A stretch of 64,000 bases of DNA from Nemertoderma westbladi (Eukaryota; Animalia; Xenacoelomorpha). The stretch covers positions 1 to 64,000 of the forward strand of contig JAUCBJ010006799.1 of the NCBI GenBank assembly GCA_032718475.1. Reading direction: 5' to 3'. The position numbers and the translations under genes are program-made. Shown piece after piece: positions 3,737 through 24,008 of the stretch (its first letter is position 1; each line of letters opens with the position of its first letter). The notes beneath the pieces were generated by a model. It was not told the DNA's origin. It made no database searches and was given only the letters and a program-made list of their open reading frames with translations.

Positions 3737-3821
3737 GGTTCAGTAGCTCAGTTGGTAGAGCGTTGGAAATTATAAGTGTAGTAGGTATCGAGTTCGAATC
3801 CTAGTAAGTGCGAATTATTTT
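3737..3821 (+). ncRNA. tRNA-derived Pol III unit (box A + box B) in LTR U3; identical copy at 20253-20337
   Basis: GGTTCAG-TAGCTCAGTTGGTAGAGC (box A, perfect GCTC/GAGC D-stem) and GAGTTCGAATCC (box B/T-loop) at tRNA-like spacing, followed by TTTT. The acceptor, anticodon and T stems do not pair well, so this is not a canonical tRNA. Confidence 0.7.
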
Positions 3822-4018
3822 GTGCAGAATTTCAACTCATTTAAATTAACCGCTACAAATTAATTGCATTTGTCTGTACCAATAAGGCTGTAGTTATTTG
3901 ATTGTAACCAATGTCGTGCAAGTTATATATTAGCTGGACCAATAAGCTATCTTTAAAACCTTGTTAGAACCCATAGAACAATCGAGAATTTTCTCGATTG
4001 ATTGCAGCACAAATTTAG

Positions 4019-4162
4019 TATATAAAGGTGCGATTCGTTCATTAGTTATCACACTACACTATTCAATCTCTCAATCTTATATCTATACTTCTCAGATTTA
4101 TTCTGTCGTGCTTAGTTTATTCTCAGATTACATTGTATTATAATTGTGTCTTCTGTAATAAA
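4019..4162 (+). promoter_or_regulatory. Putative LTR TATA box (4019-4026), Inr-like TCATT/TTAGTT (~4040-4048) and polyA signal AATAAA (4157-4162)
   Basis: Motif order and spacing are typical of the U3/R boundary of an LTR. This would imply a U5 of about 1.3 kb. Confidence 0.55.
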
Positions 4163-6344
4163 GTCAGAATATTCTCTCAGCTTTTCTGTTTTACTATGGT
4201 TTCACTACGGTGAACAAACTCAGGGACAGGATGGCCGGCTAGAGATCGGGCCGCAGCAATGAACGGGAACATCACGGGAATGTAGACGAGAGACAACTCG
4301 CAATACCATTTAAAGTTATTCGCCCATCGCCTGAAAGGTTAGACAGCGTTCGATCCTTGCTACCTAAGTGTAAGACCAAAAGATCAACAGGTAGACGTAG
4401 TGACACGCTGTAAGCCCAAAATTACATCATAGGGACTGTACTGTCTTGATTCAGGAAAAACCCACAGTAGACCTTCACATTCCTACGGGAGGGAGAGAGA
4501 GCAGATACTAGTACGCAGATAGGACGTAGGCACACCGGTACAAGGCATACACATTGGTTAGGGTGCAGCAAACTGTACGCTTAACTCTTGCTAAGTACAG
4601 GTGTGTGTGCGACTATTTGCCGTACAACGGTGTCCATTACATCAGAACTTGTAGGCTAGGGGGGTTGCTGTGTTTTCACCTGAATGGGGATTGTACCGTT
4701 CAGGCGGTAGGGCAGTTTACGCTAGGCGCAAAATAAATTGAGGCTATCAGGGATATACTAACATCTACCGTGTCCCCGCCAACGCCCTAATAGGAAGTTA
4801 CCTGGACTACCTGGGTGACTAAAATTCTAGATAGGAGCCAGGATAGCTATTAGTACCCGTACGCCTACCGTAGTAAACTAACACATCTCTTCTTAGTATC
4901 AGGGACCTGGTACCTAAAATTGCCGAATTCTGGGCGTAGTATTAACCTTATGCCTGAATTTGAGTCCTGGAAATACGCAAGAGGGGAAGGAACCTTATCA
5001 TTCGTGAGTATTGGACCTACAAGTTATAAAATTAGAATATTCGTAAAATGCACACCGTACCCAGTAATTATATATGTGAAGGAGCAAAACTGCTTTGACC
5101 GTTCAGAATTAACACACGCGCGTTAGAAATTATTTACACCTCGAAATATATAAAATTAACTTTCGTCCTTACTGCACTTTGCTCGCTAGTTAGACATCTC
5201 CAAATCTGCTCTGTACCTAGCTAGCGTCCCTTTGCCCAACCATATAAATCACACCGCGGCAAAGTATACGAGCCTCTTAGTCCGTCAGTGAGTCAGCCTG
5301 ATTTTAGGATTCGCTGCGCGGGATTTTGTTTCATCGAAGTTTGTCTGCTCGTAGACTGTTTTCTGCCTCACCGGTTAAAAGAGATCGATACTGCAATATA
5401 TTCGCTTACTTGGGGTTTACTGTTTTGGTGAGAAGGTCGGATTTATGATTTGATTTACAAACTTTACAGTAGGATATTGCAGGTATTGTTACCGTCTCTT
5501 CCGATAGTAGGAATAGGCGTATCTCTCCAATTTAGTAGGAATATGTTTTACTGAACTACGGTTCGGTAGGACTAAAGTTTTTTGAAAAATTTGTATTTTG
5601 AGGTAAAAATTTGTATTTGATTAGCTAAGTGCTAATTTTTTTGAAATAAAATTTGATTTGAACCGCGTGTAATATTTTGGAATTGAATACCGGTGTTTAA
5701 AAGGGTTTAAATACCATATTGTACCGGTACAAAATTTTCGTAAAAGTAAAACCTAACTCTTTTGTTTTTTCAGGATTCAGAACTCATTTCTAGACTGTAA
5801 CGGGAGCAAGACCGTGTTTAGCAAGTTTGGGAGATAGATAACTCAACAACTTTGGTTGGGAAAATCGCGTTTCGTCCGCAACGTTAAAAACGGAAAGGTT
5901 CACGTTCGGTTTGTATCTGGGAATCTGTTTTTCTGGAGAATTATTGGAGTGGGTGAGTTTGAAAAGTTGCATAAATAAGTTAGGCATTACCGTATTAGTT
6001 AAAATTTATTGTGGGTTCCACTGTCTCAAGTATTTATGCATTCCGTATGATTTCTTTGTTCATTGCTGAATTAGTCCGTATTATTGTATTTAATTTACCT
6101 TTTGATAACGCATATCGTTATCCGATTTATTTGTTGTAAAATTGGCCGCTAGGCTAATTTTATTATATACTTATTCCGTGACATTTATTTGCTGTAAAAT
6201 TGGCCGTTTTAGGCTAATTTTATCCATCTGCTATAAAATCGGCCGGTAGGCTAATTTTATAAGACTGTAATTAGTACCGTTTAGATATAAATACGGTAAA
6301 CTCGATACTTTGACACTCACGTTACTTGACTTACAACTACCGAA

Positions 6345-8170
6345 ATGAGTGACAAACAAGACTATACGAAGAACACACAAACCGACTATGACTCATGTGA
6401 CGCGGATAAGTCAGCAGCGGAAGAACCACAGGGGAAGACTCGCGAGCCTACCGAACCTACACCGTGTGCGTCACCAGTACACCCAACGGGAGTACCGGAT
6501 GCCGTAGTACGAGGCGACGGCAGGACCGAGGACTTTCTAACTGTTCCGCAACCTAGATATAGGGAAACGGAATTGGTAAGTTCAGCAGGAAGCACAGAAA
6601 GTGTGGTTAGAAGCGTCGGTGGATACATGGCGCATATTACCAGGAGTATTGGAGAAGGCCAACGCATATTAGACGGGTTGACCGCTCCGATGTCTCGATT
6701 CGAGTTCTACACCCTCCAGGTTAGAGTACAGAGTAAAGTATATAAGTCCGTAGATAATCTAGTTGGCCTACAAGATCTAGCTAGACAGAGACAGGACATG
6801 GATACTCAACTTAGAATCCTAGAGAAACTAATGATCACTAGAGAGAAACTGATTCAGTTTAAGTCGACGATTAGACAGATACAACAGGAACAAGCGGACC
6901 AGTTGTTAGGTGAGTCAGTTTCGGACGAATTATTACAACCCGAGGAAGAACAGGAACTGTACCGACTGGATGGACAATTAAAACACCTGACGGACCACTT
7001 ACGTATGTGCGGCGAAGACGTCGGAGATTGGGAAACCGTGCCGGAATATACGAAAGAAACTTCACCCGTACGAATTGAATCGGCACCGGGAATACTGGAC
7101 CAATCGTTGGTAAGTATTCGTAGCGAAATCTGCGAGGGAAGTATAGTCACGTCAGAAGTTGCTCGACAACAGCAAGAATTCCACCGACAACGACAAGAAA
7201 TGGAAGAACAAGCTCAACTTCTAGTGATGCAAGCAGCAGTAGAGGAAGAGAAGCTACGCGTTGCGAATATAGCAAGAATCTCTCATCTACAGGAACAAGC
7301 TGAATTAGAAGCAGCTGAAGTGGAAAGATTAGAAGTAGACATTGCCCGACAAGCGGCAGCGGCAGCGGCCGAGGTAGAACGACAAGCGGCAGCGGCAGCG
7401 GCCGAGTCAGAGCGGCAGCGGCAGCGGCCGAGTCAGAGCGACAAGCGGCAGCGGCAGCGGCCGAGTCAGAGCGACAAGCGGCAGCGGCAGCGGCGGAATT
7501 AGAACGAGACAGGTTAGTTTCGGAAGCACGGGCCGAAATGAAAACACGGCAAATAAAAGCTCAATCCGCCATACGACAAGCAGAATTTGAGGCGCAACAA
7601 CGACAAACGGAACAACGAGAGAAGACAGCTAAACTTCATTTCGAACTTGAGAAGAAGGCGAGAGAATTAGCGAACGCTGAGGAAGATCTGGATCAAAAGG
7701 CCCGCGATCGATCGATGAGATCTCGTGACGGACATGATTTGGACCAGTTAGAGGTAAGACATCGCCAAATTCAGGAACGGAAGAAGGAAGGAAGCGTAGG
7801 AGCACCCGGACGGGAACGACAATTAGTAAAAGACGTGTGTCAACGATTCCCACAGGTAACTCATATGTTTGCACCGGTTACGACTAAGGAACCTGTTTCG
7901 ATTGCGGGTAGTAGTGATATTTCTCCTATTCATGGTGCGACGGAACACAGGTTTGTTATTCCAGACGAGTTTGTACCGCCAAGAGCAACGTCGTCGCCCA
8001 TTCCGAAAGTCAAGGTAAGTAACCCACCGATTACGGATCGTAGTAGTTTATTGACCGGACCCGCACTACTGACGACAAAACAGGTGAGTCCACCTTTGAC
8101 ACCTAAACCCGTTACACATTACGCTTATCCAATGACGTTTCGACCTACAAGGCCAGTTACCCAAGGAGGT
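6345..8170 (+). pseudogene. gag: BEL gag N-terminal region (coiled-coil, Ala-rich repeat, Pro-rich), frameshifted
   Basis: ORFs 6345-7502 and 7538-8224 join across a 33-bp tandem repeat (cgacaagcggcagcggcagcggccgagtcagag). One copy near 7413 lacks 7 bp. The architecture matches the gag of the second BEL element. Confidence 0.8.
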
Positions 8171-9317
8171 GAGGTCTCTATAGGGGTGACTGGAACAGGC
8201 GGCGGCGGACTCGTGAGGGTCTAGGGGCACGTTAAATTCCTTGTATAGTGCTAGGGAGTCACTGAAGGCCCTCGTGTCTAACGAACCATGAATTGCCATG
8301 GTGCCGTGGTACCGTCTAGTCGGCCTGTTGCCGTACTGCCAGTCCTGTACACAGTAGGGGTGGCGGCATGGCGTGATTTGTGGTTCATGTGGCGTGGACT
8401 ATGTTTTGTATGTGGGCGATCAGTGGCAGTTTGCTTGGGGCTTGGATGGTTCCATTGACCGTCAGCTGTTCCGTTTTTTTGATACTATATGTTATTGTCT
8501 CCATGTTCAGCTGATTGGTCTTTGGTGGCATTGGAATAAACCGTCGGGCTTTGAGCTTTCTGTTGCTGTGGGTACGTGAGTACACGTGATTGTATGTGTG
8601 GCCACTGCGAGTGGGTATGGGAACCCTTGCCAGTTGGACAAGACGCCGCTGGTATTAGTAGGACCATACTTTACTGCGCCCCAGCATACTTTGTGCACAC
8701 AAAGTTATTTTACCCTGTCGGTAAAATAAAGTACTCTCGATTTGCTGCCGATCGATACAATTTTGTCCCCTCTGATTTTGTCCCTTCCGATTTTGACCCC
8801 GATTTTGTCTTTACCCGATTATGTCCTCTGTGTGTGCATGGTATGTGTCAGATTTTGTGATTACCGTAGTGTACTTGATTTCGTGAACATCTGTTGAGTA
8901 CACGTGTACAGGACGGGTAAGTGGTTACTTGTTCCTAGCTTTCGAGCTAGTCAATATTGTTGAGGAACGGTGTCCCCTCAATATTGCCGGCGAGGCAGGT
9001 GAAAACGTGTCAATATTCCATGTTGGGTAGCGCAAGCCCACATGGGACAAGACCGTCGGTTAGGCCCAAGGGCGACCTTGGTGCTCGATCGCTATCGACT
9101 GGTCCACCTGCCGGTTGACTCTTTGTTATACTTTGAGTTGGCTCAATGTACAGTCAGGCCACAGTAAGTTGACAGTAGCCGCCCATCTGGCTACACGTTC
9201 GACGAGCTGTGCTGGTGTGATCGGGGGACCGAAAACAGAACCCGGGAAGCATCAGGCCACCCTCCGGCCCGGTCTGATAATAACATCTGTCGGACTGGCC
9301 CCAGGGGTGGTGGAAAG

Positions 9318-12300
9318 GTGTCCGCCTCATGGGTGCGCCTCGGAGTCATCAGAGAGGAGCCCAGAAGGACACAAGTGACAGTTCTATTAAAGATAATAGG
9401 ACGACTCCACCATCGACTTCGTCGGGAGTGGAGGAAGGTCGAATACCAGCGAGAGGAGCGAGGAGGATTCCTAAAATTAGAAGATGTGTACCTTTTAATA
9501 TCCAGGGAGGCGGTAGTAGAAACTCGATCTAACTATACCGACCAGCACATCGTGGCAGAAGGGATCACACTGCCATCCTCCAACCGACAAAAACCCCAGA
9601 CAACATCCACAAAGACGGCCACTTACGCCACACCGACGGAATCACGACAATTCTCAGACGGTAATAGAGTATCTGCGCCCATTGGGACGAAACAGACGAG
9701 ACAGCAACTCAGCACCGACTTCAACGGCTGCCAATACTGCGAACATTTAGGTAAGCGGTATATTGGTCACAAGTTACGAGGTTGTCGACAATTTCGCGAG
9801 TTGAACTCAGAAGAACGACGGCTGCAGATACGGCCACTGGACTCTTGTTGGCGGTGTACGCGACACGGACACGTCCGTAAGGATTGCCCAAATACCGACA
9901 CTTGTCCATCCTGTGGACGCAACCACGACGGTCTGCTCCACACAGACAGCCACACGCCGACGAAACGCTTCGCCAGGGAACACCCGGAAGCAGCAGCGAG
10001 ATGTGATGCGGCTTACCGAAAACGAGAATCGAAAACGACTCCGACTTTCGTGACCCATATAGAGGATTGCTTTTCAGAACAATCCGGATCGTCGGACGAA
10101 GAATCAGAAGACGACGAATATTCAAATGGAGACGAACAACCGTCAATCGCGCTCCTGACCACTGACCAACTGAAGGGATTCAGTGTAATCCCGATTAAAG
10201 TTACTGGCACAAAAGGGAGTAAGAGGATTTACGCGATTCTAGACTCAGCCTCATCTCACAGTTACGTAGATGAAAAGATAGCTGACGTCGTAACAGATCT
10301 TAGACAAGGTAAGCACGTCAGTTATACAGTAAGTAGTATGCACGGACAGCGTGCAATACCAGTGACACGAGTTAAGTTGGACTTAGACTCTCTTCTTCCA
10401 AAATCGCAACACAGCGAGAGGGAGAGGTCTTTGTTGCCCTTTAGAGATCTAACCTTTGCGGCCACGAAGGACTTTAGTAACCTACTAGGTCCAGTGCCGG
10501 AACAATCTCTGGAGGACCGTAAGTATTTCAGACACCTTGGTGTACCCGAATGTCCTGTCAATTATAGATCGGTAGCAATGCTGATCGGGACGGACCAATT
10601 CAACCTACACCAGGTGTGGGAAACCAGACCATCGGCAGTTGTAGCAGGAAACGCATACGCCTGCAGAACGCCGATAGGGTGGTATACTCGAGCGCCTGTG
10701 CGCACACTAGACGTAAGTGACGAGGAAGACGATGTACAGAGTACATGTAGTTTATTAACTACAAATTCAATCCATTCCTTTTCACACGACGTGAACCATA
10801 CTACACTACAGTCGACAAAACATGACAGACGTGTAACTAGTATGATAAGTCACAAGGAGCAGCTAACCCACAAGGTGAGTTTAGAACTTGGGGGGAAGAC
10901 GAATCAGCTAGAGATTCCATCGACGACAGATGATAGGCTTGCGAGTCTACCTACCCCAATAACCTCAACAGTGCCCATCGATATCGACGATGACGCGTTG
11001 AAAATTCATCAGTTGGAACAAGCCGCCTTGGACAAAGAATTAACGGAGAAGACTATCAGGTGGTTAGAACAAGATACAGCTGAACCTGGTAGCTACGACC
11101 CTTGTATGTCGGAACAGGAGAAACAATCTCTAAAGATCATGGAGGATACTATCCGACAGACGGAGGACGGACATTACGAGGTGGGTATGTTATGGCGTAG
11201 CCAAAGTCCTAAACTTATAAACAACTATCCACTGGCTTTAAGACGTCTACACTCAATACGGCAACGTCTATTAAAGGACGAGAAAGCCCATCTGCAGTAT
11301 AACACTCAGATGGAGACGTATTTGACGAAGGGATACGCTATCCGAATGACTAACCTGGAGCGAGTGACCGACCAGACATACTACCTGCCACATCACTATG
11401 TGAGACATCCCGATAAACCAGACAAAGTACGTGTAGTCAATGACTGTGCGGCTCTGTTTGAGGGAATGTCCCTCAATAGTGAGTTGATGGATGGACCGAA
11501 CATGAATAATTATCTTATGGGGGTGATTATGCGCTTCCGTCAGCGTCAAGTAGCCTTTACTTGCGACGTTGAAGCGATGTTTCACCAAGTAAAAGCGTTA
11601 GAGCGAGACAGAGACAGTTTGCGGTTTCTCTGGTATCCGGAAGGGGACTTAAGTCTACCACCAGCGACTTACCAAATGCAAGTTCGCGTTTTCGGTGCCA
11701 GAGACAGCCCGAATTGTACGATGTACGCCTTGAAGCAAGCCGCTAGAGATCAGAAACATCTGTATGACCCAGAGATAATTAGAATTGTAGAACGTGACTT
11801 TTACGTTGATGACGGTTTACAAAGTTGCGACACAGTAGAACGTGCTACAACAGTAGCACATCAATTACGGGACTGCTTGGCGAGCGGAGGTTTTAACCTC
11901 ACCAAATTCGCCTCAAACAGTGCCGAATTAGTTGACTCATTCGGAACTACTGAGCGTGGAGGTGGTGACATAGACCTAGAGTTCGAACCACTACCGACGA
12001 CTAAGGTGTTGGGGCTCTTTTGGGACCCAAACACAGACAACTTTCGAGTGAAGGTGAGACTGGACAGTCAAGGAGACACACTGACCAAGAGATCATGCTT
12101 GTCAAAGTTGAGCCGATTGTTCGATCCGTTAGGATTCATCAGTCCAGTAATACTGCAAGCTCGCATTTATATGCGCAGTATATGGAAGGATGGACTAACA
12201 TGGGACGAGCCGATCTCATCAGACCAAGTGGACTTATGGAAGACCTGGGAGGCGGAATTGTCTTCGCTAGAGGATTATTTCATACCCAGGGTTTACTTTC

Positions 12301-15194
12301 CATTACAGAGTACAGTTCCTGACAACTTGGAACTACACTGTTTTTCTGACGCCAGTGACAACGGTTTTGGTGTGGCAGCGTATTTGCGCAGACAAGTAGA
12401 ATCGGACGAGTTCGATGTTTCGCTCATTACTTCCAAGGCTAAGACCATGCCTACTAAGTATATGACAACACCACGAGCCGAGCTACAAGCCGCGACCCTG
12501 TCAACCACCATCGTGAACCTCATACAGACAGAACTACAGTCGAGTTTACAGATATTTTATTGGACTGACGCGACGTTAGTTTTATTTTACATAAACAACG
12601 ACACTCTCGAATTCAAGACATTCGTAGCTAACCGTCGCGCGGAAATTCTAGACCGTTCAATAAAAGGGGATTGGCGACATTGTCCCGGACCACAAAACCC
12701 AGCTGATATTGCGTCGCGAGGAATGATGCCTGAGGAATTCTGTAAACCGGAGAACAAAGAGTTTTGGCAACACGGACCCCAGTTCTTGCAGAAATCGACA
12801 CAAGATTGGCCTCCGTTATACGACAACAAGTCCAACACCATTCCCAAGGACGCCGAAATCAAGAAACCAAAAAAGGGGAAGACAAAGAAAAAGACGACGG
12901 CGGCGAAACTCAAGAAAAAACCGAAGGCGAAATGGAAAGATATAACTTCAAAGGTCAAGAGAGGAAGACTTGCGAGCCTTTCTACACCAGACATATCGCC
13001 AGACGGTCAACCAGACATATCGCCAGACGGTCAACCAGACACGTTACTAGACAGCCAACCAGACATTTTGCCAGACATATCACAAAATGTTCCACCAGAC
13101 GTTAGTAACGCACTGACAAACAGTAAAGCCGCAGTTTCCCTATTGGAGCGGCCTTCTATTGACAAACAACCAGATACGTTACCAGACGTATCGCCAGACA
13201 CACTACTAGACAGTCGACTAGACACTAGTAATGTATTGACTAACAATAAAGCCGCAGTTTCCCTATTGGAGCGGCCTTGTATTGACAAACTACCAATTTT
13301 GACACACTTGAGCAACCATAAGCACGGTGAAACCTCATGTATTACAGATGTGGGTAGTACCTACGCTAATGTAAATACAGGTGTTACTTTGCGCTCAAGA
13401 GACATACCGAACCTACAACCTACGGTGAGACCTGGGATTAATGTCGGCAGGAAAATAAGTTTACCAAAACCTGCTGACCCCATAGAGTTCAAACCACCAT
13501 TAACGATCGACTTACAAAGTACTGACAATCAAGGTAAGAAGACAAAGAAGGACAAATTACTTGTAGACCCGGACGGATCAACAGTCAACAAGGGAATACT
13601 TACCGGCGGACCCGTGGGCCCTTCTAGTAATTCAAAACCTTCCAAGTTCTCCATTGACTTACCTGATGACGTCACAAATACTTATGTCGACCGTATTGTA
13701 AACTTAACAGACTCTTGGTCAAACGCTTGCCGAAAATTAGCGTGGATTGTACGTTTTGTACAATACGTTAAAGGCAAACGTGACTTCACACGTCGACTTA
13801 CATTGGCTGAGATTGACAGGTGTGAGATTAAATTAATTCGCCATTACCAACTGAGATATTTCGCGCGCGAATTCACATCTATAAGTCAAGGTCAACCAAT
13901 CAAGTCGTCACCAATACTGAGTTGGAGTCCGATTATTTATAATGGCTTAATTTGTCATAAATCTCGGCTTCAAAACATTGACTTTAACACAAACTTTAGG
14001 TACCCAATAATAATACCGCAACATCACGAACTACAACGTGCTATGATACTGGACGCACATTTACATCTGAAACACGCTGGAAGACACCACTGTCTTTCCT
14101 ACTTACGTACTAGATTTGTATTAATTAGACCCAGTAAAGCATTAAGTTCCGTGACACGTACGTGTATTATTTGTAAAAAGGTACATTCTAGAATAGGTAC
14201 CCAAGAAATGAGTGAACTACCACAAGCACGACTTCAAGCATTCAGACCACCTTTTACAGAGACTGGAATTGATTGCTTTGGTCCCATACATACGAAACGT
14301 GGACGTATACTAGTAAAACGCTGGGGACTGATTTTCACATGTATGTCCAGTAGGGCAGTTCACATTGAACGTGTGACGGATCTTTCCACCAACGCGTTTA
14401 TTCTAGCACTGCGGCGATTTATCGCTAGACGCGGACTAGTAAAATGCTTGTACTCAGACCAAGGGACAAACTTCGTTGGTGCTCGGAATGAGATTGCTAG
14501 AGCCTTTAAGAAATTAGATCATGATCAAATCTCGAACGAACTGCAACCTCACAAGATTGTTTGGAAGTTTAATCCTCCAGATAGTCCTTGGAGAGGCGGA
14601 GTCTGGGAGAGATTGATTAGATCTATCAAAACGGCCATGGCAAAGGTCATTCCAGTAAACCACATATTAACAGACGACCAACTGACAACATTGTTTGTTG
14701 AAATCGAGGCAATACTAAATACTAGACCAATAGTATTAGTACCCGATGACAAACAATCTCAGTTCGCTTTAACACCAGCACACCTGCTTATGCAGGCACC
14801 GACCACATTGACGCCGATTTCCATGCCAATGGAAAGCGATAGCTACGGGAGAAAAGCGTGGAAAATCACGCAACTACTGGCTAACAAATTCTGGGAAATA
14901 TGGCAAAACCATTATTTGCCCTCTATTTCTGCCAGAACAAACTGGTACAATAACACCCGCGCATTAAAGCCGGGAGATCACGTGCTGTTGGCGGAAGTGA
15001 ATCTAAAAAGACGCTTCTGGATAACAGGTGTCATTTTAGCCACACATCCATCTATGGATGGAGTGACAAGAACTGTGACGGTACGGACAATTGACGGTCG
15101 TACAGTAGACAGACCGACTCAACGTCTCGTACTTCTTGAAGAGACTCGTAACGAGTCTGGAGACTACAAATCTCCACCTAATACTAGTAAATAA
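9318..15194 (+). CDS. pol: BEL gag C-terminus plus Pol (3 Zn knuckles, aspartic protease, RT, RNase H, integrase), open for 1958 codons
   Basis: Knuckles CQYC..H..C, CWRCTRHGHVRKDC and CPSCGRNHDGLLH. Protease ILDSASSHSY. RT KVRVVNDCAA, DVEAMFHQV, FYVDD. RNase H FSDAS, PRAEL, FYWTD, NPADIASRG. Integrase HLHLKH..CIIC, TGIDCFGP, SDQGTNF, GGVWERL. Confidence 0.97.
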   Translation: MSASWVRLGVIREEPRRTQVTVLLKIIGRLHHRLRREWRKVEYQREERGGFLKLEDVYLLISREAVVETRSNYTDQHIVAEGITLPSSNRQKPQTTSTKTATYATPTESRQFSDGNRVSAPIGTKQTRQQLSTDFNGCQYCEHLGKRYIGHKLRGCRQFRELNSEERRLQIRPLDSCWRCTRHGHVRKDCPNTDTCPSCGRNHDGLLHTDSHTPTKRFAREHPEAAARCDAAYRKRESKTTPTFVTHIEDCFSEQSGSSDEESEDDEYSNGDEQPSIALLTTDQLKGFSVIPIKVTGTKGSKRIYAILDSASSHSYVDEKIADVVTDLRQGKHVSYTVSSMHGQRAIPVTRVKLDLDSLLPKSQHSERERSLLPFRDLTFAATKDFSNLLGPVPEQSLEDRKYFRHLGVPECPVNYRSVAMLIGTDQFNLHQVWETRPSAVVAGNAYACRTPIGWYTRAPVRTLDVSDEEDDVQSTCSLLTTNSIHSFSHDVNHTTLQSTKHDRRVTSMISHKEQLTHKVSLELGGKTNQLEIPSTTDDRLASLPTPITSTVPIDIDDDALKIHQLEQAALDKELTEKTIRWLEQDTAEPGSYDPCMSEQEKQSLKIMEDTIRQTEDGHYEVGMLWRSQSPKLINNYPLALRRLHSIRQRLLKDEKAHLQYNTQMETYLTKGYAIRMTNLERVTDQTYYLPHHYVRHPDKPDKVRVVNDCAALFEGMSLNSELMDGPNMNNYLMGVIMRFRQRQVAFTCDVEAMFHQVKALERDRDSLRFLWYPEGDLSLPPATYQMQVRVFGARDSPNCTMYALKQAARDQKHLYDPEIIRIVERDFYVDDGLQSCDTVERATTVAHQLRDCLASGGFNLTKFASNSAELVDSFGTTERGGGDIDLEFEPLPTTKVLGLFWDPNTDNFRVKVRLDSQGDTLTKRSCLSKLSRLFDPLGFISPVILQARIYMRSIWKDGLTWDEPISSDQVDLWKTWEAELSSLEDYFIPRVYFPLQSTVPDNLELHCFSDASDNGFGVAAYLRRQVESDEFDVSLITSKAKTMPTKYMTTPRAELQAATLSTTIVNLIQTELQSSLQIFYWTDATLVLFYINNDTLEFKTFVANRRAEILDRSIKGDWRHCPGPQNPADIASRGMMPEEFCKPENKEFWQHGPQFLQKSTQDWPPLYDNKSNTIPKDAEIKKPKKGKTKKKTTAAKLKKKPKAKWKDITSKVKRGRLASLSTPDISPDGQPDISPDGQPDTLLDSQPDILPDISQNVPPDVSNALTNSKAAVSLLERPSIDKQPDTLPDVSPDTLLDSRLDTSNVLTNNKAAVSLLERPCIDKLPILTHLSNHKHGETSCITDVGSTYANVNTGVTLRSRDIPNLQPTVRPGINVGRKISLPKPADPIEFKPPLTIDLQSTDNQGKKTKKDKLLVDPDGSTVNKGILTGGPVGPSSNSKPSKFSIDLPDDVTNTYVDRIVNLTDSWSNACRKLAWIVRFVQYVKGKRDFTRRLTLAEIDRCEIKLIRHYQLRYFAREFTSISQGQPIKSSPILSWSPIIYNGLICHKSRLQNIDFNTNFRYPIIIPQHHELQRAMILDAHLHLKHAGRHHCLSYLRTRFVLIRPSKALSSVTRTCIICKKVHSRIGTQEMSELPQARLQAFRPPFTETGIDCFGPIHTKRGRILVKRWGLIFTCMSSRAVHIERVTDLSTNAFILALRRFIARRGLVKCLYSDQGTNFVGARNEIARAFKKLDHDQISNELQPHKIVWKFNPPDSPWRGGVWERLIRSIKTAMAKVIPVNHILTDDQLTTLFVEIEAILNTRPIVLVPDDKQSQFALTPAHLLMQAPTTLTPISMPMESDSYGRKAWKITQLLANKFWEIWQNHYLPSISARTNWYNNTRALKPGDHVLLAEVNLKRRFWITGVILATHPSMDGVTRTVTVRTIDGRTVDRPTQRLVLLEETRNESGDYKSPPNTSK

Positions 15195-15790
15195 TTAGGA
15201 GTTTACAAATAGATTTCCACGTACCTGTACACCGTAGTAAGGACAGCGGTAGAATTCCATTGTCTTTATATGTGAACATTGAGGGTAGTACCCTTATGTG
15301 TCACATAGGAGCGGGATTTGTAGGTATAAGAAATGGAATTCTACTTGGAACTCACAATATTGAGACATTTTCGAAATTTTAGACAATCCATTTGGATTTG
15401 AAAAATTTTTAAAATTTTCTCCAGTGAATAGATTTCAGGGTACAGTCGGGTGGAACTTAAAATTAGAGAAACAAGAGAGGAAGACTTGCGAGCCTTTCTT
15501 AAAATTTTAATTAAATTTTACACGGTCTTGTTTCAATAAGTTACGTCAAAATAGACTCCCCTATATTTATTACTAATTCTTGATTGCTTATTTTCTGATA
15601 ATAGTTTGGGATCAAAAAGTGAGTATTTTAGACTCACGGCCAGTTTAGCCCAAATTCGTTTTTACTTCGGCAAAAATTTTAGATAAGAAGCAGCGTGTCA
15701 TTAAAGAAACCCTAGATCTTAGGCTATGGGTAGGAGGTTAGAGCGTTGTCGAGCCCAAAGGGCAGACGAAACTCTCACGTCTCCTCACAA

Positions 15791-15821
15791 CTAACTACAA
15801 ACTCTGTTGTATTCCCTCTAG
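15791..15821 (+). promoter_or_regulatory. Putative branch point and 3' splice acceptor for a subgenomic accessory-ORF mRNA
   Basis: CTAAC (15791-15795), then a pyrimidine-rich tract ctctgttgtattccctc and TAG (15819-15821), 30 nt before the ORF3 ATG. Confidence 0.55.
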
Positions 15822-15851
15822 TAGTAATGATTATGTAACTACACCCTAATT

Positions 15852-17702
15852 ATGGAGAAAGGGATACAAGGAGAGCCGAGATGGGGATATGATATCCAAG
15901 AGGAGGCAGCAGCGCCATTCGAAAGATTTGGAGCCAAGGATTATACTATATTTGGTATAAAAGAATTATCGGAAAGTACAGCGAAACTCGCGAGAACTAA
16001 ATATGACTCGAATGTATTAAAGAGAAGGCAAAACGCATTAAACGAAAGAATCGAAAGTTTGCGCCAAACCTTCAACGAACTTTACCCGTACGATGCTTTG
16101 TGTGATACGGGAGACATTAGCGAAGACCCCGATACTGAAATTAGTCGTTTGTATCATACCATGCAATACCTAAAGGCGCACGAACCTATGCCCGCGGTAC
16201 GCGATGAATTCGATGGAATGCATCTTTACAGACGAACTCGAGGGGACGATAGAGAAACCAAGGAAGCATTTTCAGTTTATAAACTTTATTATCAATGCGG
16301 TTCTTGTATGCGCGAACAACGAAATGCGATTCCGATGCGTTTGAATAAGGAAAATCCCGAACCGATATTGGCGAGGTGTTCGAATCATCAACAACTACGC
16401 TACCAGGAAGGAGGGTACCCTTTATCGAATCCATATCATTCAACGACACTCAATTTCCCTATTAGTATACCAGTCCGACAGGATACGACGTACGAAATAC
16501 CCATCGTGGATCATCCAGAAATCATTTCAAACTTGGAGTTTCTTCCTGCAGTTGTTTTCAGCGATATGAGTAAGATATATGATTTGCGTAGACATATTAC
16601 TCAAAAGGTCGTGAACAACGTTCCACCTCATATCCAAGATTTTAAGGAACTGGATAGAGCTGGTGCCGACATAGCTCCGAGTAATCTGAAAGGATATCTA
16701 ACCAAGACGATTCGTTTATGGATTGGAATCGGAACCTTCGAGTCGGATACGGATATTGCCGCAGATTGGCGAGGTAAGGTTATTCGTTTCGATGAGGATA
16801 AGGATATAGAGAAGATTTGGCAACCTTCGGAAGAATTGTTGGATGAATGGACTAGGACGTTTAGATCGTTTCAGGAAAACGGTTATATGTTTTACGATAA
16901 CGAGGGCGGCAGTCATCAGCAGAGTTTGACTTCTAAGACTATACAGATTAGAGCGGCGGACGGAGTCCTGCACGTTTTCAGTAGACAGAGGAGCGACAAA
17001 CGAATGCCGATACCTCCAGCGAATACAAAGCGACACCATCTTATCACCGATATAGTAAAGAAGATGGACCAAGCTTGTAATATTGACGCTAGAATGTTAC
17101 CGAAGATGGTAAGAAACATGATTTTAGATAAAACTGTTGTAAAGGTTGGATCAGGAGTAAGGGAGGATTTAATTAGCGACTTCGCCGGCATGACGGACAG
17201 CGATGACCGACTACCGACACCATACGTCGACACTCGACCTCTTATTCTGTGGTCTATAGAACAGGGATATTTTCGTGAGTATAATACTCAGAAGACTGGA
17301 ACTGGATACATTTCCTACCTGTTATTCAATTGGGATTATAAGGAAGGTAAAAGAAACAAGTATATTGAAACTTATGGAGAAGGTGATACTCCAGATATGA
17401 GTGAGTTTGAATCACAGCTTAAATGGAGAGGATGCGTGTATTGGGCTATTACGTCACCTCCAAGAGCGGTCTTACAATATTATTTAGCGATAGAGTCGTC
17501 AGTGAATGTTTGCCTAATCGCCGACATTGTGTCTCGGACTCTCAAAAGACATCCACTTTGTCTCGGAGAAGATCATACGTTCTACATGGAAGGGAGAATT
17601 CGTACCGACGTGTTTAGACGATTCCTTGAACCCTTCTACAACTCCGACGCTCAGTGTAATGCCTTTACTCGAGCAGGATTTAGCATATGTAGCATATGTT
17701 AG
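15852..17702 (+). CDS. Accessory ORF3: DEDDy/DnaQ-like (WRN/EXD2/RNase D-type) 3'-5' exonuclease-like protein with an N-terminal CxxC..CxxH motif
   Basis: WRGKVIRF strand. ExoI YMFYDNEG (D349, E351), then TIQIRAADGVLHVF. ExoII LPKMVRNMILDKTVVKVGSGVREDL (D439), then YVDTRPL. ExoIII-like W..SPPRAVLQYYLAIE (Y544, with E548 in place of D). Confidence 0.75.
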   Translation: MEKGIQGEPRWGYDIQEEAAAPFERFGAKDYTIFGIKELSESTAKLARTKYDSNVLKRRQNALNERIESLRQTFNELYPYDALCDTGDISEDPDTEISRLYHTMQYLKAHEPMPAVRDEFDGMHLYRRTRGDDRETKEAFSVYKLYYQCGSCMREQRNAIPMRLNKENPEPILARCSNHQQLRYQEGGYPLSNPYHSTTLNFPISIPVRQDTTYEIPIVDHPEIISNLEFLPAVVFSDMSKIYDLRRHITQKVVNNVPPHIQDFKELDRAGADIAPSNLKGYLTKTIRLWIGIGTFESDTDIAADWRGKVIRFDEDKDIEKIWQPSEELLDEWTRTFRSFQENGYMFYDNEGGSHQQSLTSKTIQIRAADGVLHVFSRQRSDKRMPIPPANTKRHHLITDIVKKMDQACNIDARMLPKMVRNMILDKTVVKVGSGVREDLISDFAGMTDSDDRLPTPYVDTRPLILWSIEQGYFREYNTQKTGTGYISYLLFNWDYKEGKRNKYIETYGEGDTPDMSEFESQLKWRGCVYWAITSPPRAVLQYYLAIESSVNVCLIADIVSRTLKRHPLCLGEDHTFYMEGRIRTDVFRRFLEPFYNSDAQCNAFTRAGFSICSIC

Positions 17703-19222
17703 CATATGTGTATCTTCGCTGTGCGGGATCTCTTATCGAAAGACCATCTATGTTTACATTGTTACCCTATGAAGGAGAACGTATTGTGGAAATTACGGAT
17801 GAATCACGGCAGACGCGCGCGCCTATCGGTCACCTCGGTGATGATTTCAACGTAACTACTACGATCGCCGACGATCCTTTAGAGGAACTTCTTGAGATAG
17901 AAAGGAACCTCCCGAAGAAATCTCAGACGGAGATTCGACAACTTGAAGCAACAGATGCTATAGTTTGCATACAACCTTCAGAAACCTACCAACCCATAGA
18001 CCCAGATGATTACGATTATAGTGTGGGAGGAAGCGCTCGACCGATTGGAGATCTTATATACGAACGAGTGTGGTACCCTGCTAATACGATGTGTAGTAAA
18101 TGTGGCGTCGCTGGACATCATATGGCAAAGTGCAGTGGAAAGCACATTACTACGACTCAGCTAATCTGTGGATGGTGTGGGGATCAAGGGTCTCATACCT
18201 TTTATACTTGCTGGAGATTTATGGCTCAGTGTACTTACTGCAATATAAAGGGACATCGAGCATCTGAATGCCAACTAAGGGACATACCTTATGAACACGA
18301 ATCTGTAAAACTCGTGAGGAAGTTATTTGATGAGTGGGAAGATTTAGCCGACGAACATGTATCAGCACAAAGAAGACGGTTTCCGATGAGAGCGCATCTT
18401 GGATTTTGGGCGGTGAATCCTCAAACGATGATGTCGGAAGGATACATCTCCGCTATGCCCCAATATGACGAACTTATCGAGGTTGTCGATATTTTGCCCC
18501 ACGACAGCGGATTTCGAGTGGTGCGCGAGTATCTGTTACAGATTCACCCAGATAACAAAAACACGTGGAATTTTCAGAAAGTCGTAAATCGTATCACGTA
18601 TGGTGAATTTGATCGTTTCCGAACCGAAAAGCGGAATAAAGGAGCTTGGTTAACCGTCGCATGGGCGTACCGAGCCGCGTTTTACCATAAACGTATACGA
18701 GCGAGCGTATTCGAGGAAGAAGAGGTCCTAGAGGCGACGAATATACCAGCCACTCCGGTTGCGCCGTCTGCACGTCACCCTCGGGAGGACGGGCAGGGTA
18801 GGATCATACGGGTCCAGAAGGTGGGCCAACAATTGAAGAAAATTATTAATGTAGAAGAACGCAAGGGAGTTGAGCCGACTATTCGAGTTACTCGGGATAC
18901 GGTATCACTTCCAAGAGAACCGGTAGGAGGATCGGGACATACACCAGCTGATCAACAGGGGGCGCAAGCTACTCTCGGGTCTGCGTCGTCCGCTTCTCAC
19001 GCGTTCCCAGACGTTCTACCAACTGTAGCGACAACTGATCGGTCACGAGGAATTGGTCGAGGTTTTGGGATGCCAAATAGACGAATTTGCGAGGAAATAG
19101 TCGCACCGTCTCTCAACGTCCCAAATAAACCAGTGACTCGCCCCATTAGTCCCATATCGCGAGCAAAGTCACCTGTGCGCAGTTTTCGAGGACGCGGCAG
19201 GGCTCGATCTATTAAGCGATAA
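17696..19222 (+). CDS. Accessory ORF4: three clustered CCHC zinc knuckles and a disordered RG-rich C-terminus
   Basis: CSKCGVAGHHMAKC (from aa133), CGWCGDQGSHTFYTC (aa158), CTYCNIKGHRASEC (aa179). C-terminal RSRGIGRG and RSFRGRGRAR. Confidence 0.8.
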   Translation: MLAYVYLRCAGSLIERPSMFTLLPYEGERIVEITDESRQTRAPIGHLGDDFNVTTTIADDPLEELLEIERNLPKKSQTEIRQLEATDAIVCIQPSETYQPIDPDDYDYSVGGSARPIGDLIYERVWYPANTMCSKCGVAGHHMAKCSGKHITTTQLICGWCGDQGSHTFYTCWRFMAQCTYCNIKGHRASECQLRDIPYEHESVKLVRKLFDEWEDLADEHVSAQRRRFPMRAHLGFWAVNPQTMMSEGYISAMPQYDELIEVVDILPHDSGFRVVREYLLQIHPDNKNTWNFQKVVNRITYGEFDRFRTEKRNKGAWLTVAWAYRAAFYHKRIRASVFEEEEVLEATNIPATPVAPSARHPREDGQGRIIRVQKVGQQLKKIINVEERKGVEPTIRVTRDTVSLPREPVGGSGHTPADQQGAQATLGSASSASHAFPDVLPTVATTDRSRGIGRGFGMPNRRICEEIVAPSLNVPNKPVTRPISPISRAKSPVRSFRGRGRARSIKR

Positions 19223-19259
19223 AAGGGAGGGCAAGGGTGGACGGAAGACTCGTGAGCCT

Positions 19260-20100
19260 TTCTTATGATTTGTGATTTATTTGAATTATATGTTTTATAT
19301 TTAGAAAGTTTTGTATTCTGAAAGGGACTCATATTTAGTAAAAACTTATATTTTATATTTGTGCTTATTCCAAACTTATGCAATTTGTATTGTTCCGAAT
19401 TTATGAAATTTAGAAAGTTTAGAAGGAACTTATATTTGAAAGATTTATGTTTCATATTTGAGATGCAAAGGTTTATATTATTCTAAACTTATGCAGTTTA
19501 TATCTATATTTAGTAAGACTACCCAAAGAGAGTTTATATTTGTAAGAATTTATATTTATATTTGTAATTATTCCGAACTTATACAATTTATATTATTCCA
19601 AACTTATGCAATTTGTATTGTTCCGAATATTATGCAATTTATATTTTATAAGCAGTATTTGTACCTAAAGAGAAAGTTTTATAGACAGAAAATTTTGTGC
19701 TCAGAAAGACTCATATTTGTAATTATTCCAAACTTATGCAATCTACATTTAGGTACGAAAGTATTTGTAATTACTTGAATTTATGCAATATTTGAGATGC
19801 AATAGTAGATGGAAGACTCGCGAGCCTTTCTTATTGTTTTCATTTATTTGTATTTGTAATTGTTTGAATTTATGCAATATCTGAGATGCAATAGATTTAT
19901 ATTGGTGAATTTAATTTAGATTTATATTGTACTTACTTAGTAAAGCCTTAAATACGTAAAGTTTAAATTTGTAATTATTTTGTATCGAATCATTACGTAG
20001 AAAGGAAGTATTGTTTGAAACTTAATTGTAAATATGTAAGTACGCCCTAAGTATTCTATAGTTTGATTGATTATTGGTGAAAACCGTATATTTTATGCAC
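19260..20100 (+). repeat. AT-rich 3' UTR with dispersed TATTCC(A/G)AA(C/T)TTATGCAAT repeats
   Basis: The motif recurs at about 19366, 19477, 19569, 19594, 19723, 19775 and 19863. Confidence 0.7.
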
Positions 20101-20126
20101 GATAATATCCTGTTTTCATGGAGCGG

Positions 20127-22050
20127 TATAGAATTATATTCCCTAAATGCCGTGGATTTTCAAAATTTTATTTTATTCGAATTAACTTTGTAAAGATTGC
20201 TTTGAGTTCTCATTAGTATTGGTTCTATCTATTGTGTATCTATCGGTCAAGTGGTTCAGTAGCTCAGTTGGTAGAGCGTTGGAAATTATAAGTGTAGTAG
20301 GTATCGAGTTCGAATCCTAGTAAGTGCGAATTATTTTGTGCAGAATTTCAACTCATTTTAATTAACCGCTACAAATTAATTGCATTTGTCTGTACCAATA
20401 AGGCTGTAGTTATTTGATTGTAACCAATGTCGTGCAAGTTATATATTAGCTGGACCAATAAGCTATCTTTAAAACCTTGTTAGAACCCATAGAACAATCG
20501 AGAATTTTCTCGATTGATTGCAGCACAAATTTAGTATATAAAGGTGCGATTCGTTCATTAGTTATCACACTACACTATTCAATCTCTCAATCTTATATCT
20601 ATACTTCTCAGATTTATTCTGTCGTGCTTAGTTTATTCTCAGATTACATTGTATTATAATTGTGTCTTCTGTAATAAAGTCAGAATATTCTCTCAGCTTT
20701 TCTGTTTTACTATGGTTTCACTACGGTGAACAAACTCAGGGACAGGATGGCCGGCTAGAGATCGGGCCGCAGCAATGAACGGGAACATCACGGGAATGTA
20801 GACGAGAGACAACTCACAATACCATTTAAAGTTATTCGCCCATCGCCTGAAAGGTTAGACAGCGTTCGATCCTTGCTACCTAAGTGTAAGACCAAAAGAT
20901 CAACAGGTAGACGTAGTGACACGCTGTAAGCCCAAAATTACATCATAGGGACTGTACTGTCTTGATTCAGGAAAAACCCACAGTAGACCTTCACATTCCT
21001 ACGGGAGGGAGAGAGAGCAGATACTAGTACGCAGATAGGACGTAGGCACACCGGTACAAGGCATACACATTGGTTAGGGTGCAGCAAACTGTACGCTTAA
21101 CTCTTGCTAAGTACAGGTGTGTGTGCGACTATTTGCCGTACAACGGTGTCCATTACATCAGAACTTGTAGGCTAGGGGGGTTGCTGTGTTTTCACCTGAA
21201 TGGGGATTGTACCGTTCAGGCGGTAGGGCAGTTTACGCTAGGCGCAAAATAAATTGAGGCTATCAGGGATATACTAACATCTACCGTGTCCCCGCCAACG
21301 CCCTAATAGGAAGTTACCTGGACTACCTGGGTGACTAAAATTCTAGATAGGAGCCAGGATAGCTATTAGTACCCGTACGCCTACCGTAGTAAACTAACAC
21401 ATCTCTTCTTAGTATCAGGGACCTGGTACCTAAAATTGCCGAATTCTGGGCGTAGTATTAACCTTATGCCTGAATTTGAGTCCTGGAAATACGCAAGAGG
21501 GGAAGGAACCTTATCATTCGTGAGTATTGGACCTACAAGTTATAAAATTAGAATATTCGTAAAATGCACACCGTACCCAGTAATTATATATGTGAAGGAG
21601 CAAAACTGCTTTGACCGTTCAGAATTAACACACGCGCGTTAGAAATTATTTACACCTCGAAATATATAAAATTAACTTTCGTCCTTACTGCACTTTGCTC
21701 GCTAGTTAGACATCTCCAAATCTGCTCTGTACCTAGCTAGCGTCCCTTTGCCCAACCATATAAATCACACCGCGGCAAAGTATACGAGCCTCTTAGTCCG
21801 TCAGTGAGTCAGCCTGATTTTAGGATTCGCTGCGCGGGATTTTGTTTCATCGAAGTTTGTCTGCTCGTAGACTGTTTTCTGCCTCACCGGTTAAAAGAGA
21901 TCGATACTGCAATATATTCGCTTACTTGGGGTTTACTGTTTTGGTGAGAAGGTCGGATTTATGATTTGATTTACAAACTTTACAGTAGGATATTGCAGGT
22001 ATTGTTACCGTCTCTTCCGATAGTAGGAATAGGCGTATCTCTCCAATTTA
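20127..22050 (+). repeat. 3' LTR (1,924 bp)
   Basis: Copy of 3611-5534, preceded by the PPT-like catggagcgg and followed by the TSD tcgca. Confidence 0.97.
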
Positions 22051-22602
22051 TCGCATATTATTTAATTTACTTAACCAAGAATGAAATCTATAAACCTTGT
22101 AACATGTTAAACTCATAAAGTAATATATTAAATATTTTAAGCGTGGAGGCGATCCATTTTGTAAGAAATATAAAACTTACCTTATGCCGAGTATTGATAC
22201 TGGGATATTTATTTATCATGTCAACGCCTCAACGCAATCATTTAGCTAATTATTCTGAAGAATCATGATTAAGTACTCGGCCAATCATTTTGTAAGCTAA
22301 ACACAATAACCAAGCTGGCTTATTAGTCTGGCTCATTACAATGCTGCCTTTGAGTGGAGGTGAGGTGTGGTGTGGTTGGACTGGTTCCCCTTCCAAGCTA
22401 GGCTAGGCGTGCCAACGAAGGAGGGAGCTATAGCTGGAGACGGGGCATTTTAATAAGTTAATTACGTTTAGATCAATTAAAAACACATTTCTTAAAGCAA
22501 ATCTCTTGAACTATAATGGAATGTTGTATGTGGATTACAGCTGTATAACTTTTAAGTATAATTATTTAAATCTTATACTAGAAAATAATTAATATCCTTT
22601 AA

Positions 22603-24008
22603 CCCTATTACCACTGGGGGGGGGGGGGGGGGGGGGCGAATCGGCCCCTTCCTAGTTTTTAGTTGCTGTAACTATGCAACCCCATTACGTACCGGCCCAA
22701 TTTTTTGTGAGAATTAGCCAAATTTAATGCCGCATCTTTTGCAAAATACGCCGTTGCAATTGGATTTCTACTTTTCGATGTGGATGCCACCTCAAAATTT
22801 GGCCCAGCACCAAATTTTTAGAAATTTTCGAATTTTACAAAGTCATTCGTGATTTAGTAATTATTTACGTTTGGGCTATTTTTATTTATTTTTATTGGTT
22901 TGGATCACTCTAATGCTCTATACAAGTATGTAAGTGTAGTGGTACGTCATTTTTGGAGCACCAAATTTAGGGCGTGGCACTTTAAAATTTCAAAATTACT
23001 TTATTCGGAAAATTTACTAAAGTTCTGATTTCGAAGCATTTTTATTGGTTTTCTGGAGCGCTGAATCGATTAAAAGTAGTATAGAAGCCTGAAGACTTAG
23101 TGGTTCGCCATTTTTGATGCACCAAAATTAGGGCGTGGCACTTCAAATTTTGAAAAATACGAGATTCTGAAAATACACTAAAGTTTTGATTTGCAAAGCA
23201 TTTTTATAGGTTTTCTGGAGCGCTGAATCGATTGAAAGTAATATAGAAGCCTGAAGACTTAGTGGTTCGCCATTTTTGGTGCACCAAAATTAGGGCGTGG
23301 CACTTCAAATTTTGAAAAATACGAGATTCGGAAAATTCACTAAAGTGTTGATTTCAAATTAATTTTATAGGTTTTCTGGAGCGCTGAATCGATTGAAAGT
23401 AATATAGAAGCCTCAAATCCTTTCAATTTTGGTTTATTTTCCGAATCTCGTATTTTTCAAAATTTGAAGAGCCACGCCCTAATTTTGGTGCACCAAAAAT
23501 GGCGAACCACTCAGTCTTCAGGCTTCTATATTACTTTCAATCGATTCAGCGGCCCAGAAAACCCATAAAGATGCGTTGAAATAAAAAAAATTAGGGGCAT
23601 TTTCTGAATATTTAATTTTTCAAAATTTGAAGTGCCACGCCCACTTCTTATGTGCACGAAAAATAGCATCCACTTCAATTTTTCGAAGTGGAATATAATC
23701 ACATTCGATTCAGCGTCTTGAAAAACCTACTAAATCTAGCCAACACTGCCACACTATTAGTTTTTAGAAAACGAAAATTTTTGTAATTTTGTCCTGGGAC
23801 TACTTCTATTTTTCATCAAAATTATGAGTCCCTGCTTATGAAATTTTAACTTTTTAAGGTTTGGTAGTGTTCATCTATAGTTGTTTCACCAACAGCCCAA
23901 ATTTTGTAGGATTTCATTGGACGACTACGAAAATATAGTGGGTGGGCCGAATCGGCCCCCCCCCCCCCCAGTGGTGCTAATGGTCAAAACACCCCAGTGG
24001 TAATAGGG
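22603..24008. mobile_element. Non-autonomous piggyBac-like DNA transposon
   Basis: TTAA on both sides (22599-22602, 24009-24012). TIR CCCTATTACCACTGGGG. Subterminal cgaatcggccc repeats. Internal ~133-bp direct repeats and an inverted copy of them. No transposase ORF. Confidence 0.85.

Follow-up and report, generated by a model that had tools for sequence, protein, structure and literature searches.

Seven copies of a 20-nt pseudopalindrome within an 18.4-kb BEL/Pao retrotransposon of Nemertoderma westbladi: a possible RNA docking and pairing site

An 18.4-kb BEL/Pao long terminal repeat (LTR) retrotransposon of the xenacoelomorph Nemertoderma westbladi carries a 20-nucleotide (nt) dyad, with the half-site GRWAGRCTYG, in six strong copies and a degenerate one, spread over 13.4 kb. 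The element lies within positions 1 to 64,000 of contig JAUCBJ010006799.1 (assembly GCA_032718475.1), a 64-kb stretch referred to here as the window, and contains, besides gag and pol, two additional open reading frames (ORFs), named ORF3 and ORF4. At a rough probability of 0.42, we read the motif as a multi-copy RNA docking and pairing site that is recognized by the element's own zinc-knuckle protein, either Gag or ORF4. The starting points of this reading are directly observed: the copy number, the dyad symmetry, the independence of reading frame, and the placement in permissive linkers and untranslated regions (UTRs). The copies, together with an insertion point that concerns them, are as follows.

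6433–6452, plus strand: copy 1, 88 nt past the first gag ATG, in codon phase 1, with the center CGCG
10932–10951, minus strand: copy 2, apparently inverted, in the lengthened linker of pol between protease and reverse transcriptase (RT), with the center TGCG on the plus strand
12963–12982, plus strand: copy 3, at the start of a family-specific insertion of ~250 amino acids (aa) between RNase H and integrase, in codon phase 0, with the center TGCG
15479–15498, plus strand: copy 4, non-coding, between pol and ORF3
17808–17827, plus strand: copy 5, degenerate, in the N-terminal part of ORF4
19243–19262, plus strand: copy 6, in the 3' UTR just past the ORF4 stop, with the center CGTG
19811–19830, plus strand: copy 7, in the 3' UTR, with the center CGCG
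16442–16443, plus strand: insertion point, where one contig of public run X1 has 366 extra bases in ORF3, including a 20-letter piece that fits 6433–6452

Six of the seven copies share one orientation, four of the seven lie in coding sequence, and the region 3611–6432 has no copy. The 366-base insertion in ORF3, known from one record, probably carries an eighth copy in other members of the family.

The motif is far more frequent in the element than chance would give, and at chance level elsewhere. An earlier sequence-only reading had named five copies, at 6433, 12963, 15479, 19243, and 19811, and each of them matches a 17-nt pattern exactly, where chance predicts 0.03 matches. The minus strand adds a match with two mismatches at 10935–10951, and at least six matches were reached in 0 of 100 shuffles. 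A scan with the half-site found six sites with at most one mismatch (null 0) and seven with at most three (null mean 0.017 in 60 shuffles), although the null for the six is flattering because the pattern was drawn from the same copies. In an unbiased k-mer test, the sole dispersed 11- and 12-mers of the element (four and two, overlapping) all came from the motif, against null means of 0.2 and 0.0. In 596 billion bases of prokaryote genomes there were five single matches against 4.3 expected, and among metagenome contigs six single matches, in contigs unlike the element; both sets are taken as chance. The remaining 45 kb of the window has no copy. The motif is therefore not common outside the element, as far as these collections and the window show. 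A 10-nt partial match at 8208 and lone half-sites at 11659, 19704, 49117, 57455, and 57579 were examined and excluded as copies. None of the 40 of 1318 run-variant rows falls within a motif copy, and these rows say nothing on the motif because only ~0.3 would be expected there. We found no report of the motif, or of a dispersed palindrome in BEL/Pao, in the literature searched, with subscription papers, Repbase-type annotations, and supplements outside the search.

The repeat unit had been put at ~21 nt. The repetition holds, whereas the true unit is the 20-nt dyad, and the TTCT tail that had been included is missing from the 6433 copy. The YGYG center is present in all seven copies, with UGCG as the loop in three of them and a T in the center of four, and the core is self-complementary in two copies, 6433 and 19811, as had been claimed. 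The loop could also be read as one of the GNRA type (Y-GYGA-G), which fits the six strong copies and not the 17808 copy. The 12 half-sites of the six strong copies all fit one pattern, 11 exactly and one with a single mismatch. A copy at 17808–17827, in ORF4, had been missed; it has three mismatches to both half-sites together. Another had been described at 10934–10949 as a sixth variant in direct orientation with a different stem. It is indeed there, but it spans 10932–10951 and is matched best in inverted orientation, in which 17 of its 20 letters equal those of the 6433 and 19811 copies, as opposed to 12–15 of 20 for direct comparison with the other six copies. Each of its halves is also compatible with the half-site alphabet seen in the other five strong copies. 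From these letters, copy 2 is, apparently and most simply, an inverted copy.

A dyad whose half-sites follow one pattern, one copy of which seems to be inverted, also fits something that the sequence-only reading had not considered, namely a double-stranded DNA site. Here the 20-bp dyad would be bound by a dimeric protein, either the N-terminal Cys/His part of ORF3 or a host protein, the copies seeded along the element would keep chromatin open or counter silencing, and the hairpin would be a by-product of the symmetry. We regard this as nearly as probable as the reading as an RNA site. Besides the single half-site pattern and the inverted copy, it is favored by stem letters that scarcely vary around a weak hairpin, and by a CG-rich center that forms a CGCG-element core in two copies. 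There is also a precedent in the excerpted text of PMC5735166 (all papers are cited here from such excerpts), where VANC proteins bind short family-specific motifs within their own transposons. The other side of the balance includes the common orientation of six of the seven copies, the absence of any copy from the LTRs, the lack of a DNA-binding domain in scans of ORF3 and ORF4, and the form of the VANC motifs, which are 8–9 nt long, tandem, and non-coding, against four of seven copies in coding sequence here. The flanks of copy 2 also resemble those of copy 3 (12963) weakly in the direct orientation (Z 2.7 and 2.5; 27 pairs tested), which speaks against inversion.

The copies are indifferent to the reading frame: their codon phase is 1 in gag and 0 in pol, and three copies are non-coding. 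Because the same letters stand in two frames and in non-coding DNA, the motif is a nucleotide-level element, and it is probably under selection. Both pol copies (2 and 3) fall in stretches that are missing from homologues. The spacing from RNase H to integrase is 523 aa; among the measurable homologues (78 of 120) the median is 270 and no value exceeds 306. From protease to RT the spacing is 522 aa, and the homologues measurable here (15 of 120, one an outlier at 887) have a median of 416. These two copies encode the same five residues in the two linkers, and several of the differences between them are synonymous, as if the repeat were kept for an encoded protease cleavage site between pol domains. 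We consider such a peptide constraint very improbable: it would leave five of the seven copies unexplained, since three are non-coding and those of gag and ORF4 use a different frame, the likeness of the linker peptides is not above that of shuffles (P 0.36), and the same letters in the same frame yield that peptide regardless.

The surroundings of the copies bear on how they arose. Most copy pairs have no common flank. Copies 3 and 4 share a block of 28 identical nt (12956–12983 and 15472–15499), as the sequence-only reading had pointed out. The flanks of copies 6 and 7 (19243 and 19811) are homologous yet diverged, with 44 of 61 aligned flank columns the same against 19 of 20 in the motif; retention of the motif over its flank in this 3'-UTR pair has P ~0.008 at 70% identity and 0.024 at 75%. 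Copies 6 and 7 stem from an old duplication, and the history of the copies as a whole reads as short-patch copying followed by retention. Alternatively the copies could be functionless: a pairing-prone palindrome would be moved by template switching in reverse transcription, would be homogenized by short conversions, and would survive only where it is harmless. The locations are permissive, the 28-nt block and the inverted copy look like short-patch copying, and local duplications are abundant in the 3' UTR and the pol linker. Quasi-palindrome correction could also yield symmetric changes, and this counts for functionless copies. On the contrary, the motif is the sole dispersed sequence of the element, its flanks are unshared in most pairs, the 3'-UTR pair has outlived its flanks, and short patches would have to end repeatedly at the motif borders, so we hold this explanation to be improbable.

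The sequence-only reading had the motif fold as GGAAG against CTTTC, an A-C mismatch, and CT against AG around the YGYG loop. This is the minimum-energy fold in the four isolated 21-mers tested (−2.1 to −3.2 kcal/mol), but it has no particular stability (z −0.16 to +0.34). Among the six distinct copies, 83% of stem cells pair, and the degenerate 17808 copy has changed its innermost pair on both sides, from T-A to G-C, a change that a DNA site does not need. On the plus strand, G10 and G12 (loop positions 2 and 4) are fixed in all seven copies and each of the four loop differences is a C-to-T change, so G.U pairing between copies is kept, and on the plus strand only. In computed pairings the plus-strand center is fully paired through G.U, whereas the minus-strand center of the T-bearing copies is broken by mismatches. 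The absence of any G-to-A change in the plus-strand center counts against a DNA site, and so does the absence of CpG depletion from the element (observed/expected 1.06–1.34 in its ORFs); because there is no CpG loss, decay of methylated C is not needed for the C-to-T changes. Computed duplexes between the six strong copies have energies of −17 to −30 kcal/mol, against −0.4 to −4.2 for their own hairpins. The inverted copy is compatible with a role in RNA, since an inverted hairpin is still a hairpin and a good pairing partner.

Several results weigh against an RNA docking and pairing site. The hairpin is no more stable than shuffles, and when 75–150 nt of flank are included, only one of seven copies, that at 15479, is predicted to form it on the plus strand (0.96, the others at most 0.17); no stem extension into the flanks was found on either strand (P 0.14–1.0). 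Both-sided changes affect two of the eight pairs, a count equalled in 251 of 500 shuffles. The stem letters are nearly fixed, as they would be in a DNA site read by sequence, and the A.C mismatch, which simple pairing would not favor, is retained in six of the seven copies. The C-to-T bias amounts to only two or three independent events (P 0.125–0.25), and the duplex energies are not independent evidence because any palindrome pairs with its own copies. Copy 5 forms only poor duplexes (−10 to −12 kcal/mol) with five of the strong copies. The motif alone cannot separate genomic from spliced RNA, because the spliced form of the element described below keeps three copies. In a retrovirus with a similar loop, Rous sarcoma virus (RSV), one assay found the UGCG loop unnecessary for the specificity of Gag (PMC5035970).

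In sum, the proposal of a multi-copy cis-acting element is supported by frame independence, linker placement, rarity, and copies that outlast their flanks, whereas action as RNA is only slightly favored over action as DNA, the evidence being close to balanced. A stand-alone hairpin, as first proposed, does not agree with the weak folding, the missing stem extension, a covariation not above shuffles, and the apparently inverted copy. A role as an exonuclease block gained no support here.

A role in reverse transcription itself can also be imagined, in which purine-rich left arms and pausing hairpins would provide extra plus-strand priming or strand transfer on a long template. Purine-rich letters do stand upstream of five copies, a short tract precedes the 3' LTR, and the element is oversize, RT processivity being named as a size limit in the excerpted PMC6431247. 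The motif nevertheless differs from the tract before the 3' LTR, its single-stranded DNA hairpins reach only 0 to −1.7 kcal/mol, which is nothing notable, and the symmetry and the inverted copy would be unexplained; we therefore find this role quite improbable. Pairing between the motif and the LTR or leader (−17.5 kcal/mol) was bettered by 14 of 20 shuffles, and a bacterial scan for terminator-like sites, of little bearing here, gave nothing.

If the motif is an RNA docking and pairing site, it would act on the ~17-kb RNA of the element, with the knuckles of Gag or ORF4 as the binder. Each copy is predicted to be a hairpin of marginal stability that exposes two G's, and any two copies to form a far stronger duplex, much as the dimer-initiation pseudopalindromes of retroviruses do. 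Binding by the knuckles at sites every 0.6–4.5 kb, with pairing between copies, would mark the RNA as self, and the marked RNA would be compacted or dimerized for particle assembly, a need that would rise with an oversize genome. New copies would come from short-patch duplication, as the shared 28-nt block suggests, and would be retained where the protein tolerates them.

A wider possibility, rather unlikely by our estimate, is that ORF3 and ORF4, made from spliced RNA, bind this private 20-nt pseudopalindrome, which the element would have spread over itself, and either escort the oversize RNA or keep the element's DNA open. The escort could mean export, shielding from small-RNA silencing, or germline delivery. 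If this were true, such a self-recognition system would combine, for an animal retroelement, the parts played by Rev/RRE and by VANC, and its cognate site would be legible straight from the sequence. The motif bears on how BEL/Pao elements select their own RNA and on what DEDDy-type extra ORFs do, whose activity in LTR retrotransposons is yet to be shown, according to PMC5408684. Here a single element provides a candidate cis site along with two candidate readers, and since these amount to a 20-mer and two small domains, they are directly testable. A DNA site would carry sequence-specific anti-silencing over from the DNA transposons of plants to the retroelements of animals. An RNA site would amount to a packaging or dimer-linkage code dispersed through a retrotransposon, and would hint at a way of passing the usual size limit.

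The host element and its other features are the following.

3611–22050, plus strand: BEL/Pao LTR retrotransposon of 18.4 kb, host of the motif, defined by its LTR pair, pol domains, and 5-bp target duplication
3611–5534, plus strand: 5' LTR of 1924 bp, with no motif copy and two differences from the 3' LTR
20127–22050, plus strand: 3' LTR, pairing with the 5' LTR, with no motif copy
5953–15821, plus strand: GT..AG intron-like skip from the leader to ORF3, in one contig of public run X1
6330–8224, plus strand: gag N-terminal region in two frames, split within tandem repeats, with a stop at 8224
9168–15194, plus strand: open frame with three gag zinc knuckles, protease, RT, RNase H, and integrase
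15831–17702, plus strand: ORF3, with a coiled-coil-like and Cys/His N-terminal part and a DEDDy-like (WRN/DNA_pol_A_exo1-like) C-terminal domain
17693–19222, plus strand: ORF4, with three CCHC zinc knuckles and an Arg-rich C-terminus

The element is assigned to BEL/Pao because its pol has the domains Peptidase_A17 and DUF5641 and an integrase zinc domain, in the order protease-RT-RNase H-integrase. Its pol relatives share 34–44% identity, with the best 42–44% over RT-RNase H, and the nearest named ones come from molluscs, sea urchins, cnidarians, a barnacle, and a fish, which by itself makes an animal host probable; a search of viral contigs found no relatives. The two LTRs differ at 2 of 1924 bases and the 5-bp target duplication (3606–3610 and 22051–22055) bounds the element, which is young. 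LTR retrotransposons normally have TG..CA ends and a tRNA primer site that starts with TGG. The LTR ends here read TA..TA (3611–3616 and 22045–22050), and no TGG primer site was found behind the 5' LTR (5535–5570). Within each LTR there is a tRNA-like stretch with A-box and B-box look-alikes (3736–3812 and 20252–20328), which neither ARAGORN nor Rfam called; the ARAGORN scan was blank and the Rfam covariance models gave no match at E ≤5 across 3000–23000. The 5' part of this stretch pairs with the bases just behind the 5' LTR at −16.9 kcal/mol, within the range of chance pairing, and it is possible that the stretch is a candidate self-made primer. A TATAAA at 4021 and an AATAAA at 4157 (region 4021–4162) suggest, from their positions, that the R region is short and U5, at ~1.35 kb, very long.

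In gag, a DUF1759 domain was not matched in the three frames scanned, and none of the 92 pieces from a tblastn of 120 homologues lands in 6300–9269. The region 8201–9200 has an AT skew of the opposite sign (−0.06 to −0.45, against 0 to +0.4 around it), and stops in every plus frame as far as 9167. Neither of its strands shows gag homology, and it looks like an inverted or foreign insert. It is covered by all four public runs too, and donor-like sites lie just upstream of it, near 8015, 8084, and 8169.

For ORF3, no sequence homologue was found, and a single-sequence structure prediction reached a predicted local distance difference test (pLDDT) score of 29.6. Atlas gave weak leads for the whole protein (0.75–0.76) and a score of 0.93 for residues 270–570, for which 30 of 30 hits carry PF01612 and are WRN-like exonucleases. 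Compared with the consensus, the first motif of this DEDDy-like domain (motifs at 16710–16750, 17130–17170, and 17470–17500) seems to have no acidic residues. The domain is thus possibly nuclease-dead, like Maelstrom and EXD1 in the description of PMC5408684. ORF4 likewise has no homologue that we could find. The best Protein Data Bank (PDB) hit of its knuckles is a nucleocapsid (NC) chain, 2ihx, at an E of 0.18, which is not significant; 2ihx is the complex of RSV NC with its packaging signal. By their sequence features, ORF3 and ORF4 look like RNA binders. They overlap at 17682–17710, in three tandem 9–10-nt units, and may therefore both be one broken frame.

One X1 contig joins 5952 to 15822 with the splice-site letters GT..AG, and this joint looks like that of a spliced RNA for ORF3 and ORF4. 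It was not seen in contigs of X2, X4, and X5, but run contigs can show the presence of a joint and not its absence. The skip would drop motif copies 1–4 and retain copies 5–7. In X1, the depth over 3000–22600 climbs towards 20657 and drops past the LTR AATAAA, while X2 and X4 are flatter; from this shape and the sole GT..AG joint, X1 may be an RNA library, although a tool guessed DNA. Contigs in X1, X2, and X4 lack the greater part of ORF3 (15991–17658 and 16011–17781), and these are deletion derivatives that keep the 3' motif copies.

Elsewhere in the window, a second, distant BEL/Pao element (58048–64000, cut by the window end) shares 31–43% identity in tblastx pieces and has similar Ala-rich gag repeats, with no motif copy in the part present. 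An open frame on the minus strand (45608–46831) reads, from its translation, as a putative intronless beta-1,3-galactosyltransferase. Long inverted-repeat and minisatellite elements at 35031–36096, 22868–23674, and 32342–33215 are probably foldback or miniature transposons.

Among known systems, the dispersed packaging signals of RNA viruses and of hepatitis B pregenomic RNA, which share a loop motif (PMC6281560, in excerpt), are similar in having several short stem-loop-like sites along a genome-length RNA, coding sequence included. The several copies and the YGYG center common to all seven agree with this. However, those signals are numerous and vary around a small recognition motif, whereas the element has seven or eight copies with 17–20 letters near-fixed and a full dyad.

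The dimer-initiation site (DIS) of retroviruses is a second comparison. Its pseudopalindromes (the DIS of human immunodeficiency virus type 1, HIV-1, and DIS-1, DIS-2, and SL-C/SL-D of Moloney murine leukemia virus, MoMuLV) switch from a hairpin to an extended duplex (PMC7599994), and an RSV NC zinc finger binds the UGCG tetraloop of SL-C (PMC5035970), both as excerpted. The element likewise has zinc knuckles and a weak hairpin with a self- or wobble-complementary loop that may extend to a duplex, and its intermolecular duplex is, by computation only, more stable than its hairpin, as is true of any palindrome. In contrast to the single 5'-leader cluster of differing sequences in retroviruses, one sequence is scattered over 13.4 kb, mostly outside the leader and as far as 19830, and the spliced form of the element retains some copies.

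VANC anti-silencing proteins of the VANDAL transposons of Arabidopsis bind family-specific motifs (PMC5735166, in excerpt), and like VANDAL the element has extra ORFs and many internal copies of a short family-specific motif: seven lie within it, against zero elsewhere in the window, the partial, distant BEL neighbor included. VANDAL is a DNA transposon with a known DNA-binding protein and tandem motifs; here an LTR retroelement has single, dispersed 20-nt dyads, and no VANC-like domain was found.

A palindromic CGCG core, as in the CGCG element of BANP (excerpt of PMC10206803), occurs in the 6433 and 19811 copies. It is there without the 20-nt extent and wobble asymmetry of our motif, of which four of seven copies have a T in the center and one has other neighbors, so that the full core with TC neighbors is found in only two of seven.

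Two further systems concern the candidate readers. The LTR elements Juno and Vesta of bdelloid rotifers have an ORF3 with a DEDDy exonuclease, typically from spliced messages (PMC5408684), and resemble our element in having, downstream of pol, an additional ORF that encodes a DEDDy-like domain. The excerpt describes no repeated cis motif for them, and they differ from a BEL/Pao element with a triple-knuckle ORF and a first exonuclease motif seemingly without acidic residues. Egalitarian, with BicD, recognizes localization stem-loops including the I-factor ILS (PMC13186709, in excerpt). Its exonuclease-homology domain, in which the catalytic residues are dispensable, helps to bind a retrotransposon RNA stem-loop. 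Egalitarian is a host protein, however, that recognizes longer, bent, and bulged stem-loops, and the I factor uses one signal.

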